A stretch of DNA of 64,000 nt from Cladosporium halotolerans. Lineage: Eukaryota. Below, piece after piece: positions 51,571 through 61,688 of the stretch (its first letter is position 1; each line of letters begins with the position of its first letter). The notes beneath the pieces were generated by a model. That model worked only from the letters and a program-made list of their open reading frames with translations, was not told where the DNA came from and did no database searches. The position numbers and the translations under genes are program-made. Location of the stretch: positions 310,001 to 374,000 of the forward strand of contig NW_027191457.1 in NCBI RefSeq assembly GCF_011745625.1, written 5' to 3'.

Positions 51571-54500
51571 CTACTGCATCTTCCCCTTCCCCTCATCCCC
51601 CTCATCCGGCAATCTGATATCCACCGCCGGCGGATCCGCCCCGTCCCCATCATCGACCGCCATCCGCGAATCCTCCAAGTGCAGCGAATCAACATACGCA
51701 TCGGACGTGTGCGGCTGCTCCGCGGCGTCTGCGTCCTCGTACTCGTATCCCGCTGCGTCGCCGAAACTGATCGTTTCCTCGAGCTCGTTCCACTGGTCGT
51801 CGGAAGCGGGCGTGGACGCCGAGCCGGCGATGGGGAGCAGGTCGTCGATGAAGCGGTCGCGGTCGTCGTCGTCGTCCTGCTCGGCGGCGGTGGAGTCGGC
51901 GTCGTCGTGATGGGCGGTTGTCGGCGGGGCACGGTCTTCTACGCTATCAAGAAGCATCTCTGCGCCGGAATCAGCATTGTTGTCCCGTCGCTGCTCGAGC
52001 GAGGCGAAGTCCCAAGCGGTGTTGCCGAAGTTGCCATACTGTCTGTTGCTGCCGCTGGGGGCCTTGAGCGGGGAGACCTCGAGGTCGTCGTCGTCCTCCT
52101 CCATCCCGATGCCCTCGTCATCGCTCGTCGCCTGAGTCGTCGGCCTCAGACTCCGCGCGGCTGACTGGCCGGCTGAACCACTTCCAGCGTCCCGGAGTGC
52201 CGTCGGACCCTGAGGTTGCAGGCCTTTGGTCGCTGCGGCTCCTGCTGCGATTGAATTGCTCGACGATCCACGCAGGGTGGAGGAAGGACCGCCGAGTCGG
52301 CCTTCCCCCGAATCGGACTCGTAGGATTCGTCGGCGGAGTTGGAGTTGGTCTGCTGCTGGGGCGGGTTGCGGAAGTCGCTAACGAGGTCTTGCAGGTACT
52401 GCGGGCCGAGGGGCTTGTCGGAGCGGCGGCGGTAGAAGAGAAGATAGGCGGCGGCGGACTTGCGGGGGGAGTCGCCGAGTTTGCTGGTCATTGAGTCTTT
52501 TTGGCATTAGCGAGTGATTCGAAGAACCAGTCATGTTAGCACTCACCATTGTAATCGTACCACTGCCCGTCGAAGAAGTTCTTGGCACAGGCAGTGTAGT
52601 GGCCACCACCAAGGCCTCCGAAGTGGTTGTCCACAGCGAACAGGTCGTAAATATACTCCTTACCATCCTCCTTCTGCCCGATCTTCTCCGTCAGATCCAA
52701 GCCCTCGATAGGGTAATCGACGAGGACATCGATCTTGTCGCGGAAGCTCCTCGTACCGCCAAAGCGCTTCAAATGCACGACGACGATGTCCGGGCAAGTC
52801 CAGATCTCGAGGGTCTTGGTGGCCTGGCGGAGCTCTTTGCAGCGGTTGCAGTACCACGCGTTGTCCTCGGAGAGCTTCTCGCGCTTGCCGGTCTCCATGA
52901 AACAGTCTTCGAGCGTGATGCCGTGCTTTTTCCGCATCTCGCGGCGGTTGCGCTTCGTCTCGGTGGCGGGGTCGTGGACCATGGGGAGGCCCTTGCCGTC
53001 TTCTTCGGACAGCCACTGGCCGCGGAGATCACCCGTGTCGTGGCGGTCGCCACCAAAGACACTGTCGAGAGCCTCCGGGAACCAGTCGAGGACGATGCAT
53101 TCGCCAAGCTTGAGGTAGAAAGTCTCGTCCTCTTGGGCTTCGGAGCCGTTGACGGAAGGCTGCGACTGCGGCGAGCCGACAGCAGCGCGAGCGCGAGCCT
53201 TCTTCATCTCCCTCTTCTCCTTCTTGCTAGGGCGCTTCTCCTTGTTCTTGCGGGGCTTGTTGCCCTTGAATTTGTTCTCTTTGCCGTTGCCACGTCTCTT
53301 TCCGGCGGCAGACTTGCCGTCAAGAGGATCAGCAGGGAGTTCGTCTGCGTCAGCTTCGCTAGCGAAGTCGACGTTCACGGCGAGTGGATCTTCGGTCGAG
53401 GCCTTGACAGAGGCATCATCATCCTCGTCACTCTCCTCGTCCGCATCAGCCTCGCCCTCGGGTGAGGATGGTCCGGTGTTGGAACCCTCATCTGCGGCCT
53501 CAGAATCCGAGCTGTCGGTCTTAACGCGAGCCTTCATGTTCCGAACAGACTTATCGTCGAAGCAGGCTGTACCAGTGCAGAACATGTTCTCACGACCCTT
53601 GGCGAAGTTCAGCGTGAAGAGCTGCTCACGGAGGACCTCTGGGATGCTGTAGCTAGGGTCATGGAATGCCTTGGGTACCTTAGCTTCTGGAGTTACGGTG
53701 CCCTCGGTAGCTTGTGCTTGCTTCTTTTCACCGTCCACGGAGACAGAGACGTATCCATCTTCAGAAGAGACCGAGTGATCGCTGACAGGCGCCGCGTCGT
53801 CTTGAGCATTCGCAGCATCGCCGTTCGTCTCGGTCTTCTCAGTCTCAGAAGAGGCGGCGCGCTCGTTCTCATGAGCCTCCATCAAGATAGGGCGGCTAGT
53901 CACTTGCGCGACAGCGTGCAGAACCTTCTTGAGAATAGCCTCGTAGTCCTGCGCCTGCTCCCGCTTGACGGTAATGTACTGGGGGTGCATGGTGGTATCC
54001 CAGCCGCTGCCGAAGCGGTTCTTCTTGCGATGAAAGATCGGCACGGCAAAGTTCTCCGCCATGTCAGAGTCCATGTCCGGGATCTCGTTCTCGTTCTTAC
54101 CGAAAGAATATCCCCCGTACGAGGTTCTCTGCGGCGGAGGAATGTTGGTTGGGACGTCGGCCAGCTCGAAGACGAAGATGTAGTCGTTGCCCTGGATGTT
54201 GGCCTCGGCGACGGTGGTGCGGTCGCTGAAGTGCTTGTACATCTTATGGTTGTACACTTCGACCATCCAAAGCTTCGCGGCGTCGATGTTTTCGTGCTTC
54301 GAGGCGATGAGCTTCTTGATGTCCTTGACGGTCAGGTGCTTCTCAAGATCGAGGTTGTGGTTCACCGGCGAGCCGTTGAAGGGCACGAAGGTGAAGTTGT
54401 GGATGAAGCTGCTTTCAATAGGGAGCTGAAGAGTAAGCGACGCGAAAGGATCGAAAGTCACGCTGACCTTGTCGCATGTAGGACACTCCATGGTATTCTT

Positions 54501-56756
54501 GTAGAAACCGCTAAAAAGGTCCATACACACAGACTCGTTACGCTTGGCGTGGTTCGATCGGTAAACATCACCAAGCTCACGGATGTATTCGGGATCCGTG
54601 ACGCGCGCATCGTCAGAGTCGGGGTTTTCCAGATACGGCTTCTTCTGGATCCTGTTCAGATCCTCATGGATAGAGTCGACCAAGTAGCTGAGGAATTCCT
54701 GGGAATCTTGCTGGCCCCAACCCGAGAACACCGGGTTCTGTGAGCTCAAAGTCTTCTTAAAATTAGTGGGCGAGAACGAGGAGCTCGCGTTGTCGCCGTA
54801 GATGCCCTGCAATACCTCCGCATACTTCTTGGCCATGATACCACCGGATCCGAGCACGTTGCTAGCGTTAATTTCGCTCTTGTACTTGTCCTGCAAGAAG
54901 TAGATGGCCAGCTCTTCCACGCTGCGAATGCACTGCAGAGCCGAGTTCATGTAACAAGTGTTTCCAAGGTTCGACAAGCCGACGGTGCCCCGAGTCTTGC
55001 CATCACGCCTGCGGCCTCTGGTCACCACATTGCTGCTCGGCGCAGGACTAGTCCGGCGTGATGTAGCCGCCGAGCTCGTCTTCGATCCGTTGAGCTTGCT
55101 TCTTGAGAAGAGCTTTTTCTTCTGGTCGGAAGAGAACTCACCGCCGGCGGGCCCGCGGGTCTGCTCCTCGAGAATGAGGGTCTGGTTTTCGAACAATGAG
55201 AAGAGTTCGATGGTGGAAGATCCGTTGTAATTAAGATTGCTGGTGTTATCAGGAAGCTCGATCTGCTCAATGTCCTTTCCGATCTCCATCTTCTGCCAGT
55301 CGGCGGCTTCAACGACTAGCCTCGTGCGTTCTGCTTGAGCGGCAGATGGCGACGTTTCGCGAGAAAGAGGGGGCGAGGCCACGCCGGGTTGGCGGTTGTC
55401 GGGCTCGTTGACAGCGATGTTGGTCGGCTTGAGAACGCGCCAGATCTGAACTTTGTGGTTGAGAGGAATGCCTGCGAATTCTTTTACGCGAGAAAGGAAC
55501 TTCTGTGCCCTCTCCTGTCGCGACGAAACAACCATCAAGGCGTCTTCAGGCTTCATCTGACCGCGCTGCCGACGCTCCTGCTTCAGCCTGAGCTCCACTG
55601 CTGCAAGCCTAGACTTATCCTGCGGTTCATTGCTGTCGTCACTCGGCTGAGGGACCTTCCGGACAAGAAAAACCGGAGGGTTGAGCTCATACACGACGTT
55701 CGGAGCGATAGCGCCATCCGGAGCGGTATTCTGTGCGTATCTCGTGATCTGCTTCTGGCCAGCCACAATGCCGTACCAGCCGACAATCTTCCCCCAGGCC
55801 TCATCCGGAAGTACTTGGAAGTCCTCTTCCATGGTCAAACCCTGCTTGAGAGGGATGAAAGGGTGGCCGTTGACATCGTGCAAGATTGGCTCAGCGAAGG
55901 CGTCCTGGGGTACGATGTCGGAGTTGTCGACGGGGCCGATCTCGCCCTCGCGCGCTGATTTGGGGTACTCGGTGCTGTTCTGGTGTTCGGTCGTCCTGGA
56001 CATGACCTTCTGCAGCCATCGTGAAGAGACAACGCTGCCCCGGTCCCCATGTTCGATGGGGGTTTGCAGCAGCTGCATGACCTCCCGCACTTGGTCATCC
56101 AGACTCGGCACGGGCGCGCCACCTGCCACTTTCCACAGCTCTCCGCTGCCGTTCTCGGCCGAATAAGGCGGTGGATCCTCAGACTGGAAGCTCGTCGCCG
56201 ACGTATTCGAAGTCATCGTGCCAGGCGCCGACGTCGCCACGCTGTTCACTCCAGTTTCCTCTTGGTCGTACAAATCGTTCGACGTCCCAGCCATAGCAAC
56301 GTCCTCGTTCGAATCCACCAGCTCGCTCCTTCCCTCCATCTCGCCCGCGCTCCTCTTCGCCGGGCTCGCCGCTCTCTGAATCTCAGCACTGCCGTCCGCG
56401 GCCTCCGCTCTCACAGCGATGTCCTGCCCATTCTCGCTGCCGGACATATCCACGCTGCTCCCGCTGTCGATCGTGATCTCCGCAAACGCGCCGCTGGGGC
56501 TCTGTCCCGCGACGGGTGCTCCAGAGGCGCCGGCAATCTCCTCCTGCAAGCGCGGCGGCAGGGCCTTGAAGCTGTTCGAGGGCGAAGCGCGGTCCTCGAC
56601 GGGGCTGGGCGGCGAGGTGCGCGGGGGGGAGGACGAGGACTCGCGCTGGCGGGCCTCGTAGGCGGCGTCGTCGAAGGCGGCCGAGGGCTCGGTGTGCTGG
56701 GATAGAGATGCAAAGGGCGCGAGCTTTCGCTTCTTGGGCGTGGACGAGGAAGCCGT
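51571..56756 (-). CDS. UBP12: Ubiquitin-specific protease, Ubp12/USP4-15 type (DUSP + split C19 domain); start probably a non-AUG codon at 56756, first ATG at 56447
   Basis: Cys box GLSNLGNTCYMNSALQC, QQDSQEF, WYCNRCKE, VHLKRF, His box NHFGGLGGGHYTA...WYDYND (intron about 52497-52546) and AYLLFYRRR. Confidence 0.92.
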
Positions 56757-57397
56757 GGCGAGCGGCCGTTAAACTGCTCTGCAACGGCGAGCAGCCCCGG
56801 ACTTTTCGGAGAGGGTTTGCAAGGAATGTTTTCGTGTCGCGGTGCAGTGTGGTGAGGCCGGGCAAGCGGTATGACGATTGCGGCGAAGGGTGGGGGATTT
56901 GCCGAACGGCCGGGGCGTACGATGATGATGATGTGTGTCGGAGAGGGTTTAAATGAGAGTCCGTGTGCCGTTTACTGGCGCGGTGGGAAGGCGGCGCGCA
57001 TGCAAAGGGCGATTCGTGAAAATGTGGGGAGGTCCGCGGTCGTGCTGGCCGGCTTTGGCTTTGGCTTGCTGCGGAGGTACGTCGTTCTGTCGTCGTGCGT
57101 GCTTGCTGCCTGAGGCTGCACAAGTAATCTTGAGCACTTCACTTCCGCCGACGAACGGAGGTATTGCGCGACGCAAGCCACGTGCAGCATAGTGAAAGAA
57201 CATGAAAATTGGAAAGTTGTCGAATAATTCACAACGTCATTCTGGTTGATGTCATCTTTCAAAGTCACACGACCTTCCGAACACCCAGTCACTCCTTCGA
57301 AGGCGCAGTGTTTCCAGTGTCACTAACGCAGTAAGGTATCTGCAACGTTTGATGAACCAAATTCATTCCTAGGTATTTCCACGTTACAAAGCTACCC

Positions 57398-60228
57398 TCA
57401 AGCCCTCCACCCCTGCACAAACCCATGCAACTTATCAATAACGACCGGCCCCCAAGCCCCCATCTCCCTCTCAATCAGCTGCGCGAAAAACGCAATCGCC
57501 TCGTCCTCGCTGCCATCAAGCTTAAACCGCTCCTCGACCTTCGTGACCGCCTGGTCGCCGAAAATCGCCAGACCCGGGATATTCGCATCCCTCATCAAAG
57601 AAAACAAATTCAGGATCAGCGAGCTGCTGCGCCGCAGAGTCGTGTACGCCGTGAAGCAGTACTGCCTGAAATTCTCGAATTGGGATTCCGAGGACGCCGG
57701 GGCGGAGCCGCCCATGCCGTCGAGCATTTCGCGCGAGAGCTTCATCAGCGGCGCCATGGGCTTGGGGTCGCGGCCGAGGATGTAGCCGTAGTCGATGTGC
57801 AGGAAGCGGCCGTCGGGTGTGATGAGGAGGTTGTCGAGGTGGCGGTCGCCGACGCCGAGGAGGTAGGTGATGACGCAGTAGCCGGCGACGCTCTTGACGT
57901 AGGTGTCCATGGCCTCCTTGCGGACGCCGAGGACGGACGGCGCGGAGGGGGAGGCCGGGTTGTTGTAGCGCAGGTAGCCGAGGATGGAGCCCTTGTACTT
58001 GGGGCTGCTGAGGATGGCGGAGACGGGGGTGCTGGGGATGAACTGGACGGCGCCGGCGAGGGTGGAGGTCGCGAGCGTGCGGTAGGGGGTGAGTTTGAGG
58101 TCGAGGTTTTCTTTCATGAGCAGCCGGTCCATGAGGGCGATGATTTGGATGACGAGCTGGTCTTGGCGGAGGTCGTCGCCTGTTTTGAACATGAGGGGGT
58201 ATTTTTCGCCGGTGTCGGTTTTGAAGTTGATGTAGAGCGGGAATAGGGAGGATTTGAAGACGTTGGCGTCATCGGGGATTGCGCCCACGATGTGAACTGT
58301 CGGGTCCAGCGGTAGAGGCAGCGGCGAATCCATGTGGACGAGCTCGTTCCTAGGATCCGCGAGGAACTTCTTAAGCTGTTCGACTTTCTTAGTGCGATCG
58401 GCTCTCGAGTTGACCACGTCCTTGCTGATCTTGCTTAGAACAGTGATGAACTCCGCCTGCCGAAGAAGAGTCTTCCTCCTCGTTTGCCCTTCTGGAGTAC
58501 GTTCCAACTCCTGCATGAAATCATAGCTCACCCGGGCAAACAATTTGCGGTTCTCAGGGTCTTGCGTGGGGGCCTCCTCGTCCATCTCAACCATGAGATA
58601 CCAGTAGAGGAAATTGCCGAGCTTGAAGTTCGCAGCCGATCTGGCAATCAAGAACGAAGCAAGCGACGAGTCCGGCTCGTGTTCGTCGCGAGACGCAACA
58701 GAGGGCTCGAACTTCAGCGCCTGCACAAGTTGCAATAAGTAAAGAAGCAGCTCCTCATCATCAGCCTTCCTAAGCCGGTCGACGGCATACCTGCGCATCT
58801 CTGGACTCCCTGCTCTAGGTCCCAGAAGTTCAAGCGCGTCGTCCACATCAATCTCGACCCACTTGGGCAAGAGAGCGATCGCTTGTCGACTTTCAGAGGG
58901 CTCGTTCCAGTTCACCGACTTGGCCAATTTCGTCAAAGCGCGCTTGTCACGAGTGAGGTGGTGCCTAAAGCGCCAGATCTCATCCTTCTCCTTATCGCTG
59001 AGCTCCACTGTAGGTCCGTACTCCAGCACCTTGTTGAGAAAATCTCGCATCTTCGGATTAGGCTTCAAGTCGCGATCGAGCGCGTTACGCTGCCCGCGTA
59101 TGAGTCGCCGATGTTTGGCTTCGGCCGGGTTGTCAGCGTAGCCGACTTCAGGGTCGTAGACCTGGATGAGTCTGGTGGTGCTGCCGCCCTCCGTGTCGCT
59201 GTTCCCATGGCCGTCCGGGTGTATGCCTGGGCCTAGCTGGACTTCTGGCGGTGGTTTGAAGTTGACTGCTCCCGGCTGCATGTGCGCGGGCTTAATGCTG
59301 CTGAGCGGAGGCGCTGGGTATTCGTGGTCCGTGAAAACGATGGGGTGGTCGAAGCGAGGAAACTCGATGTACAGGAAGAACGCCCCGTCAATGTGGTCCT
59401 TGTCTCCCTCGGCGCACAGCTGCCCGTTCGCGTTTTCCGAAGCCTTCTCCGGCACAGTCTTCGGCTTTGTCGAGTCTCGGACGCTCTGCCGCTCCATCTT
59501 CTCGATCTGCCGGAAAACCATCTGGTCCAGCCACTTGTTCTCTGTGATCTCGCCCATCTCGTGCTTCTTCATCAGCCCGACCAACCGCTCCAGCTCAGCT
59601 TCGCGGCGCACGAGCTTTTCGCTGACGACGACCGGCTCCTCGACCGTGTCCCGCCGACCTCGCCGCTTAGGCTCCCGCCAGGGCGTCGTGGTATCCGAGA
59701 AGCCGTCCGCAGCTTTATGCCTCCAGATACGGCACTTCTGACGACCCGTCCGCAGCGTCGCATCTTCGTCGTACAAGGGGATCGTCGTCCCGCCGAACGG
59801 GATATGGTGTCCCGCATCGCCTCCACTAGGGTTGATCGGCGAAAGATCCCAAAGCGTGATCGCTAGCTGGGTGTTCGCAGGCAAGGAGCTGTAGTCAGCC
59901 GGCAGCGTGAGCCACTGACCCCATACGCGGCCATGCTTAAAGTGCCTGTAGGGGGTCTGGGAGTGGACGGTGAGGGGTTTCGAGTCGGCGAAGGGCTGGA
60001 CGGTGATGTAGAGCTCGGAGTTGGAGCTGAGGTTGCTGCCGCGGTGGCGAAGGTCTGGTCGTCGGAGGAGGGTGGAGTATGGGAGGGGTTTCTCGTAGCC
60101 TTCAAGGCGGTTGCTGGGATATGTTAGACATGCGCGATGGGATGAGCTTGTCGCATCGAGTGGACCCACACCTTTATCGCAACTGGTAGATGCAGCTGCG
60201 ATGAGCTGGCGAACGTGAAAGGCTCCAT
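57398..60228 (-). CDS. VPS34: Class III phosphatidylinositol 3-kinase
   Basis: Exon 1 MEPFTFASSSQLHLPVAIK and an intron, then C2 and helical domains (LLYLLQLVQALKFE) and kinase motifs FKTGDDLRQDQL, GVGDRHLDN, HIDYGYILGRDPKP. Confidence 0.96.
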
Positions 60229-61688
60229 TTGGGTGGTGAGGTTGAGAGCTAGTATTCTGATAGACTCATTGTTGCGACAGCGACGTTGTCGCGTTCAGCT
60301 GCTGGTCATGTGAGGGAGGTTGTCATGAGTCCGAGATGCGGCTTGCTTGCAGGTGATTGCGTTGGATCGCAGCAAGCGCGAGCAGCTTGGACTTTCCCCG
60401 TGGGGCATGTCCTTTTCCCTTGGCACTTCACTTGAGCATGGATGCCACAAACACCAGTGACACAACTCAACATAGCCGTAGAAAATATTTTGAAATGAAA
60501 CAGACCTGCCGGATTCGGCACAAATATTGATAAGAACGTACAATATCATACTTTCACTCCTACTGGGCCAATGATACATTTCAAAGCTCGCGTTCAGAAC
60601 CCTTCACACCCGTTCGTACGCCCACATGACTTCTCCCAAACGCTATTACAAAAGCGACATGCATTGCTTCACGGGTGGCGCATACCAAGAGGCCATACCC
60701 TTGTGCAGAGCCGGACATCATGCACATCGGCAGCCACCTTGTCAACTCCGAGTGCAGGATGCCGGGAGGATGCGATGCTACCGTTCGGAACGTTTGCGAA
60801 TGATGGTCTTTAAATCTCAATTGCAATCCACGGTAATGGGAGACGCCCTGACAAATGCAACTGATCGATCTGCGAGCCGCATAGAACGCATAGAACAATT
60901 TCGGGGTTTCTTTCCCAAAAGAAGTCTTGGACTCGCTTAACATTGACCATGGTCGTCTTTATCAGAGTGGTGGTATTGGCTGGCTGGTAGGCGCAAGACG
61001 AGGAGGACGAGTCCTTCACAAGATCTGCTTGGGGATGGCCCTGACGTGACAAATGAGCGCCTTGGATTGGCAAGCGTGCAGCAGTCAAGGCCGTAGCTCT
61101 GCTCAATCAGGCGCAAGCACAGAGGCACGCACGAGAGGCTTTGCGGGAAATGATGGAGAGCGGCCTGGCCGAGTTCGAAGGACCTGCCCAGACACGATAG
61201 CGCATAAGCTCGTAACGAGCAGGATTGGCAGGGTCGGCGGGCTGTGGTACGATCAGCAGGCGAGTATCACCGGCCAGGATGGTCAGCCGCGGAGGGAGGA
61301 TGTTGTGCTGGGATGGAGCAGGCATCATGAGATCAGCGCATGAAAACGCTGCAGCCGTCGAGCTAGAAGTTCGCGGAGCATCCATGTAGCAGTGCAGTCG
61401 CTTCTGTGCGTCTGCCGGGCTGGCGGGGCTGTGCTGTGGTTTTCCAGAAGGCGGAGCCCGCCAACGTCTTCACCAGGCTTGGTACCCGTTCTGGAACATC
61501 TTGAGCAGGAGGAAGTTTGGGCCCGCAACAGATGTCTTGGTGGTTGAGCAGAATCTGTGTCTAGCGGGCTTGTCCCAGGACGCTGTCACACGGGCGCGGC
61601 GGCAGGGTTGCAGTGGCATGGAGGTGATCTCCGTGATGTCGGTTGGTATGGGCCTGGTATTCGGATTGTCTCCGCCAGCGGCAGCGCC

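Follow-up and report, generated by a model that had tools for sequence, protein, structure and literature searches.

The UBP12 locus

We analyzed a 64,000-nucleotide window of Cladosporium halotolerans DNA (RefSeq assembly GCF_011745625.1, contig NW_027191457.1, positions 310,001 to 374,000; positions below are those of the window), and we report here on a candidate ACG start codon at the 5' end of a minus-strand deubiquitinase gene. With an inferred 50-nt intron removed, the product has 1711 residues counted from the ACG. It carries a DUSP domain (PF06337; E = 1.6e-12; residues 238-341), which is folded with a predicted local distance difference test score (pLDDT) of >90, and a UCH domain (PF00443; E = 5.7e-56) in which C601 and H1386 are invariant in 36 sequences; the first 620 residues are 74% identical to a Cladosporium fusiforme protein. 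The gene, referred to as UBP12, is a Ubp12/USP4-11-15 deubiquitinase of a Cladosporium-like fungus; homologues bear the same name.

Direct reading of the minus strand bore out the geometry given in the first-pass annotation of this DNA, in which an in-frame TAA is followed by an ACG at 56756 and by a first ATG 103 codons farther on. The TAA (56771-56769) is separated by four codons from the ACG (56756-56754), and the distance from there to the first in-frame ATG (56447) is exactly 103 codons, or 309 nt. No ATG in any frame occurs on this strand between 57001 and 56447. The extension reads T/M-ASSSTPKKRKLAPF. The features of the locus are collected in Table 1.

TABLE 1 Features at the UBP12 locus (window positions)
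Feature	Position	Strand	Remarks
VPS34-type PI3 kinase, upstream neighbor, same direction	57398..60265	-	Pfam PI3K_C2, PI3Ka, PI3_PI4_kinase; context only
9-codon upstream open reading frame, poor context	56972..57001	-	245 nt before ACG; no counterpart at that distance in L001
14-nt leader block identical in L001	56816..56829	-	flanks unalignable
Conserved 5' leader hairpin	56771..56797	-	9-bp stem (three G-U at base), 9-nt loop, ends 14 nt before ACG; stem -11.0 kcal/mol
In-frame TAA bounding the open frame	56769..56771	-	stays in frame in X1, X2, and X19 despite 1-base deletion at 56771
Near-cognate ACG start codon (candidate)	56754..56756	-	context CTCGCC-ACG-GCT: -4 C, -3 G, +4 G, +5 C; 16 related loci have ACG at the corresponding position
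103-codon N-terminal extension, predicted disordered	56448..56756	-	patches KKRKL, PP(R/H)L.EE, SPS.A(F/Y)A
Basic cluster PKKRKL, resembling a monopartite nuclear localization signal	56721..56738	-	residues 7-12 counted from ACG
First in-frame AUG (MSGSENG)	56445..56447	-	start of probable short isoform and of many gene models
UBP12 exon 1 from AUG	52547..56447	-	DUSP region and most of UCH domain; Cys601, His1386 numbered from ACG
50-nt intron (inferred)	52497..52546	-	GT donor, branch-like site, AG; splicing restores homologous AYLLFYRRR motif
UBP12 exon 2 up to stop	51571..52496	-	

Conservation of the ACG among related loci

Related loci were taken from a metagenome scan, and all counts over L-numbered loci rest on the best 80 of 484 relatives. 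The DUSP region was matched by 28 of the 80 (52 had no such match); five loci (L025, L031, L032, L042, and L080) were dropped as apparently other USP types or for want of a usable upstream frame. This left 23 fungal loci, two of which (L015 and L061) lie on contigs that begin downstream of the site, so that 21 were testable. An ACG stands 1 to 7 codons ahead of a KKRK-type basic cluster in 16 of these 21, always in frame despite varied spacing. For comparison, an in-frame ACG with a purine at -3 occurs at 53 of 4105 downstream codons, or about 9% for any 7 codons; the share of ACG among Thr codons in these genes is 22%. In none of the 17 sequences formed by the 16 loci and the window does an in-frame ATG lie between the ACG and the upstream stop, which comes only 4 codons before the ACG in the window and 5 codons before it in L004.

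The surroundings of the codon are conserved as well, with a purine at -3 in 17/17 sequences, C at -4 and C at +5 in 16/17 each, and G (six sequences) or T (ten) at +4. The first-pass annotation had called the context of the window an ideal Kozak context; that it is favorable holds, with the refinement that the G at -3 is a minority form, since A stands there in 15/17. By named homologues and a low-resolution tree of about 225 residues, used for rough class placement only, the ACG loci fall into the Dothideomycetes, Sordariomycetes, Leotiomycetes, and Eurotiales (L017 and L018 were left unplaced).

Two side observations concern the codon itself. It is doubled to ACG-ACG in 6 of the 17 sequences (L003, L007, L010, L018, L019, and L021), which brings to mind the redundant ACG starts of yeast ALA1. 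From +4 to +9 (56748-56753 in the window, compared with the 16 loci), third positions are kept beyond what Ser and Ala codons need, with T at +6 in 13/17 and C at +9 in 15/17, hinting at a downstream context preference or at another overlapping signal.

Identity of the codon and possible upstream exons

Four runs (X1, X2, X16, and X19) were compared with the window over 55900-57500. The identity of the ACG was checked in full in X1, X2, and X16 and in part in X19. Contigs of the first three cover the ACG, and their G>A changes (five in X1, four in X2, and none in X16) all lie at other places. An assembly error or strain polymorphism that replaced ATG by ACG, a concern raised in the first-pass annotation, is ruled out by these contigs, in none of which the codon is ATG, together with the ACG at 16 related loci. 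The indels among those listed for the runs are all upstream of the ACG, and two of the three listed substitutions inside the extension are silent. As an observation apart, the X2 and X16 contigs end at 57010 and 57012 and restart at 57369 and 57368, and X1 is continuous; this resembles transcript ends and is not used as evidence, as X16 has a loose end and no run is recorded as RNA.

The same contigs bear on the idea that C-to-U editing, guided by the hairpin described below, turns the ACG into AUG. Guided editing of this type creates start codons in plant organelles; we know of no nuclear case in fungi. Editing would suit the fact that ACG, and not CUG or GUG, is kept in all 17 sequences beside a conserved structure, but no G>A is present at 56755 in the contigs of X1, X2, and X16 (none recorded as RNA, and contigs drop rare variants), and an ACG works unedited in Neurospora crassa extracts (PMC5487733). 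We regard editing as extremely unlikely.

If a spliced upstream exon supplied an AUG, the ACG would be an ordinary Thr codon or intron sequence. The first-pass annotation had seen no convincing exon of this kind; as a refinement, a full route of ATG, donor, branch site, and acceptor can be drawn on paper in 4 of the 17 sequences, the window included. The window has two such routes, from ATG 57203 with a donor at 56975 or from ATG 57190 with a GC donor at 57106, both leading to an AAG acceptor ahead of 56732, with TTAAC at 56772 upstream of it. In close relatives, however, both are interrupted by substitutions: 57201 C>G (X1 and X19) destroys ATG 57203, and 57104 T>G (X1 and X2) damages the GC donor. 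No route exists in the other 13 sequences, and the four routes are not homologous to one another. Splicing to the acceptor would remove the ACG together with the codons that follow, although in all 17 sequences these stay in frame, and the CAG at 56774 runs into the in-frame TAA. One X2 contig also spans 55900-57010 without a joint, which is uninformative about splicing if X2 is DNA. A spliced upstream start is in our view very unlikely.

Selection and AUG depletion in the extension

Between the window and L001, 73 of 100 aligned residues in the extension are identical, and the nucleotide differences number 19, 20, and 44 at codon positions 1, 2, and 3. For this one pair, the nonsynonymous-to-synonymous substitution rate ratio (dN/dS) is 0.21 in the extension versus 0.13 after the AUG, and gaps are multiples of three in 4/4 cases inside the extension versus 2/8 upstream. 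The extension is under purifying selection. Three patches are kept in the alignment consensus of 50 sequences (KKRK, PPHL..E, and SPS.A.A), with K8 and K9 at least 90% conserved and R10 fully conserved. The conservation check proposed in the first-pass annotation gave a strongly positive outcome: four fungal classes retain the ACG, its context, its frame, and the basic cluster, substitutions are biased toward synonymous ones, and indels keep the frame inside the extension only. In codon, context, and selection, this has the sequence marks of a conserved non-AUG-initiated N-terminal extension. AlphaFold gives residues 1-210 as disordered (pLDDT, 39-54), and folding of the conserved tail patches onto the DUSP domain was not seen in the AlphaFold model.

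From the ACG to the AUG the frame is free of stops for 57-153 codons across loci, and AUGs are depleted over the same stretch. Only six out-of-frame ATGs lie between the ACG and the first in-frame AUG in the 17 sequences, compared with 21.4 ± 3.8 expected from codon shuffles (0/2000 as low), and the stretch has no AUG at all in the window and in 13/17 sequences overall. Before a G, NAT and NAC codons number 6 versus 59 in the extension (6/65) and 52 versus 61 downstream (52/113). This depletion fits leaky scanning, in which ribosomes bypassing the ACG have to arrive at the in-frame AUG that comes next. AUG avoidance would also serve a short transcript starting inside the extension, and with transcription starts before the ACG and between the ACG and the AUG, the two forms could arise in the absence of leaky scanning; for Cryptococcus PUS1, transcript starts that flank a start codon have been described (PMC7049704). 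An ACG by itself is already leaky, however, so that a long transcript would still give both forms, and a short transcript alone needs no AUG avoidance over the whole 57-153 codons. We consider separate transcripts improbable. As a side observation, at L004:4525-4912 and L008:1174-1558 the distance to the first in-frame AUG is about 128 codons, and each extension contains a single weak out-of-frame AUG that opens a 6-codon frame.

A nuclear-localization-like cluster

The cluster PKKRKL lies in the disordered region (pLDDT, <55) and matches the core K(K/R)x(K/R), which we take to be the consensus of a classical monopartite nuclear localization signal (NLS). A model of importin-alpha with residues 2-41 scored 0.51, versus 0.12 for the best of three controls, with contacts agreeing in at least 82% and a partner pLDDT of at least 46. 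Passes at scores of 0.60 or lower came from 5 of 78 solved complexes and, among 180 mismatches, from all 4 that passed, in a benchmark without peptides, and the importin-alpha pass may reflect memory of solved NLS complexes. Judging from the sequence, it is fairly likely that the cluster works as an NLS. The ACG start could instead be real and the cluster no NLS, with a tail that serves partner binding or stability or with an ACG that mainly caps the amount of long protein; the two further conserved patches in the tail would suit binding motifs, and the importin-alpha pass is weak. Such roles seem unlikely to us, since the cluster is the best conserved part of the tail, sits at the free N terminus of a disordered region, and matches the consensus.

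A hairpin upstream of the ACG

What the first-pass annotation missed, apart from the depth of conservation, is a hairpin just upstream of the ACG. In the window it sits in a block identical to L001, beyond which the leader is unalignable. Over 40-nt windows from 16 sequences, the region from -40 to -1 folds with a mean z of -2.85 versus dinucleotide shuffles; z stays within -0.7 to +0.4 in windows that lie wholly upstream of -20 or run from the ACG onward. A single stem of -8 kcal/mol or stronger within 60 nt before the ACG is found in 16/17 sequences, compared with 0-3 of 16-17 in five control windows, and in 13/17 the distance from the end of the stem to the ACG is 8-14 nt. The pairing was compared among related sequences with our own register to a 7-bp core, the MAFFT alignment of the hairpin region being too poor for covariation counts; both sides of at least one pair are changed with pairing kept in L001, L013, L004, L008, and L018. 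No Rfam covariance model matched at E values up to 1 across 56300-57500, and no downstream helper structure was found in windows from 0 to +69 of 16 sequences (mean z, -0.3 to +0.4).

The inverted repeat and the motif TTCAC.ACG.CTTCC could together form an element bound by a protein as DNA or RNA, with no translation before the AUG. Nucleotide conservation beyond coding need at +6 and +9 and a palindromic core common to 9/17 stems would fit such an element, but it leaves unexplained the 57-153 stop-free codons, the frame-keeping indels, the dN/dS of 0.21, and the peptide patches conserved 60-90 codons downstream. Moreover, stems that differ keep pairing (L013, L018, L004, and L008), inner G-U pairs occur in five sequences, and the sense strand folds better in 13/17. 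We hold a binding element without upstream translation to be very unlikely, and we lean slightly toward a hairpin that acts on initiation as RNA, in a direction that is uncertain.

Three further observations concern the leader. In L001, the 14-nt leader block lies about 60 nt before the ACG; no counterpart in this form was found at the other loci. A CTG inside the stem was considered as a conserved start and is in frame in Sordariomycete- and Leotiomycete-like loci; it was rejected because in L002 and L021 it is out of frame, at a distance of 35 nt from the ACG. The peptide ELHRQL, present upstream in many gene models, was likewise rejected as protein and is read as translated hairpin, because the stem is invariant while the loop changes residues.

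Gene models at the site

Among 360 homologous protein models, which are predictions seen as residues and not as codons, 268 start too far downstream, 6 have no anchor, and 86 reach the site, including models from Neurospora intermedia, Trichoderma, Colletotrichum, Aspergillus, Talaromyces, and Paecilomyces. A Thr in the arrangement T-[AS]-x.. precedes the basic cluster in 68 of the 86; 12 show a basic cluster within that zone (among them five Onygenales, with T-P-S-S-K-R-R-K-V), and 6 have neither. Above the Thr, the models are mutually unrelated except for read-through of the hairpin, and they begin at ATGs that occur by chance or are joined to the upstream gene. A Met within 9 residues of the cluster is present in 3 of the first 240 models. 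One model starts MKKRKIF, and the tail of L022 starts at an AUG 73 codons before its KRKL; AUG can therefore replace the ACG.

Some public models, 2000-2400 aa long, merge UBP12 with the gene upstream of it, which in Eurotiomycetes brings in PX/sorting-nexin domains (P0035, P0054, P0057, P0058, P0090, P0092, P0093, P0120, P0283, P0318, P0335, P0339, P0342, P0343, and P0348). These fusions probably come from gene callers seeking an ATG for the open extension. In the window, the upstream neighbor is the VPS34-type kinase; its frame is open for about 250 codons ahead of the first Met, and because the C2 domain sits inside that stretch, the gene needs an upstream exon or another start.

Two probable proteins from one mRNA

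Initiation at the ACG is, on this evidence, very probable. That the gene gives two isoforms is probable too, and one UBP12 mRNA that yields two proteins by leaky scanning is the explanation that we favor overall, with good though not full confidence. A minority of scanning ribosomes would start with Met-tRNA at the ACG, aided by the near-optimal context, and would make a long form beginning (M)ASSSTPKKRKL, whose exposed classical NLS would direct it to the nucleus. The remaining ribosomes would move on over 309 AUG-free nt, start at the AUG at 56447, and give a short form that, without the signal, would stay mostly cytoplasmic. The hairpin 5' of the ACG might tune the split between long and short forms; the direction that we favor is that it raises ACG use or regulates it conditionally, through ribosomes passing the ACG more than once or through contacts at the exit channel. 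The division into nuclear and cytoplasmic isoforms, already suggested in the first-pass annotation, is one that we infer.

The Aspergillus nidulans homologue UspA is described with 1418 aa and C469, and UspA-GFP expressed from the native promoter lies largely outside the nucleus, a lesser part being nuclear; the protein pulls down KapB and KapF (PMC6627422). The length and the position of the Cys fit the AUG-started short form. The localization pattern would be compatible with a minor NLS-bearing form.

Several points weigh against this interpretation. Five of the 21 testable loci have no ACG (L005, L006, L009, L055, and L022), so the ACG is dispensable in some lineages: L006, L009, and L055 are Chaetothyriales-like and have no basic tail, L005 resembles the same group and keeps the basic cluster, and L022 has the AUG-started tail described above. 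The counts over loci are not independent, because the loci are related. L017 has a divergent context and a weak hairpin (-5.5). The extensions of L003 (three) and of L004, L008, and L018 (one each) contain out-of-frame ATGs, and L004 and L008 are without the usual second AUG position. The hairpin cores of 9/17 sequences are identical in sequence and therefore silent on pairing. The comparison with UspA-GFP is carried over from L021 and other Aspergillus models. Finally, start-proximal upstream hairpins lower initiation at AUG, opposite to the direction that we favor: in single-molecule work with a yeast system, a stem 6 nt before the AUG pushes back the 43S complex and lowers 60S joining (10.1101/2021.12.08.471614).

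As a separate observation on one of these loci, a basic cluster (KRRRV) is preserved at L005:4700-5200 along with part of the tail, and an ATC in good context 16 codons upstream may serve as a substitute start.

In yeast, selection is reported to act against structure at -40 to -1 (10.1101/2021.12.08.471614), so that a hairpin kept just upstream of a near-cognate start is unexpected for translation biology. A plain damper seems the less likely role, since a poorer context would suffice for it and yet the context is near optimal; we therefore favor the hairpin as a helper or conditional regulator of ACG use, at about even odds. More tentatively, and with doubt prevailing, the hairpin and the ACG may form a dedicated cis-element kept across four classes, a translational dial for the nuclear pool of a signalosome-associated deubiquitinase. 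With the ACG in the P site, the stem would end at the exit channel of the 40S subunit and set ACG use, perhaps according to helicase activity or temperature. Such a dial, if true, would be the upstream counterpart of known downstream helper hairpins and would explain the small nuclear fraction of A. nidulans UspA.

In molds, Ubp12/UspA is the signalosome-associated deubiquitinase that affects development and VeA levels, and how it enters the nucleus was left open (PMC6627422). An ACG-started form with an NLS, if true, would answer that question and would mean that the nuclear form is missing from clones that begin at the annotated AUG; it would also account for the scattered wrong gene models, with their stretched N termini and their joins to the gene upstream. 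The literature searched contained no mention of a non-AUG start for UBP12, with earlier mention possible in supplements or in Wei et al. 2013, which were outside our reach; an Alternaria UBP survey has no match to "start codon" (PMC12295320).

Comparison with known systems

Ubp12, A. nidulans UspA, and human USP4, USP11, and USP15 share the DUSP and UCH domains and the Cys and His boxes, and association with the COP9 signalosome is known for UspA, Usp15, and Schizosaccharomyces pombe Ubp12 (PMC6627422). The main text of the UspA paper has no match to "start codon" or "NLS" (PMC6627422).

The nearest fungal parallel at the level of initiation is N. crassa cpc-1, where the conserved ACG (NCC8) initiates in extracts (PMC5487733). 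In both genes the ACG is conserved across the Pezizomycotina, has a near-optimal context, and is in frame with the main AUG; both extensions are under purifying selection (dN/dS of 0.35 for cpc-1 versus 0.21 for UBP12), and both were missed by annotation. In cpc-1, however, several near-cognate codons bypass the inhibitory upstream open reading frame uORF2 (PMC5487733), whereas UBP12 has one ACG, sometimes doubled. The UBP12 ACG differs further in that it places a basic, targeting-like cluster at the N terminus and follows a conserved hairpin; "secondary structure" has no match in the main text of the cpc-1 paper (PMC5487733).

Cryptococcus LeuRS (ACG/AUU) and ArgRS (AUU) resemble what is proposed for UBP12 in that a targeting sequence is added from a near-cognate start whose context is strong and a downstream AUG gives a cytosolic form (PMC7049704). 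The synthetases are targeted to mitochondria, whereas the signal in UBP12 is NLS-like and the protein is a deubiquitinase; the authors of that work saw no enrichment of predicted nucleus/cytoplasm dual localization (PMC7049704). In START systems, in which downstream structure assists non-AUG initiation (PMC11165317; 10.1101/2021.12.08.471614), as in UBP12, initiation is proposed to be adjusted by a stem-loop near the near-cognate codon. START structures lie downstream and work best at +23 to +26, whereas the UBP12 stem lies upstream and ends 8-14 nt before the ACG in 13/17 sequences; at the START position, about 20-26 nt downstream of the codon, no stable structure was found in 16 sequences (mean z, -0.3 to +0.4). 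As read from the sequence, the proposed mode of initiation in UBP12 resembles that of cpc-1 NCC8 and of the dual-targeted synthetases and differs from them by its NLS-like signal and its upstream stem.

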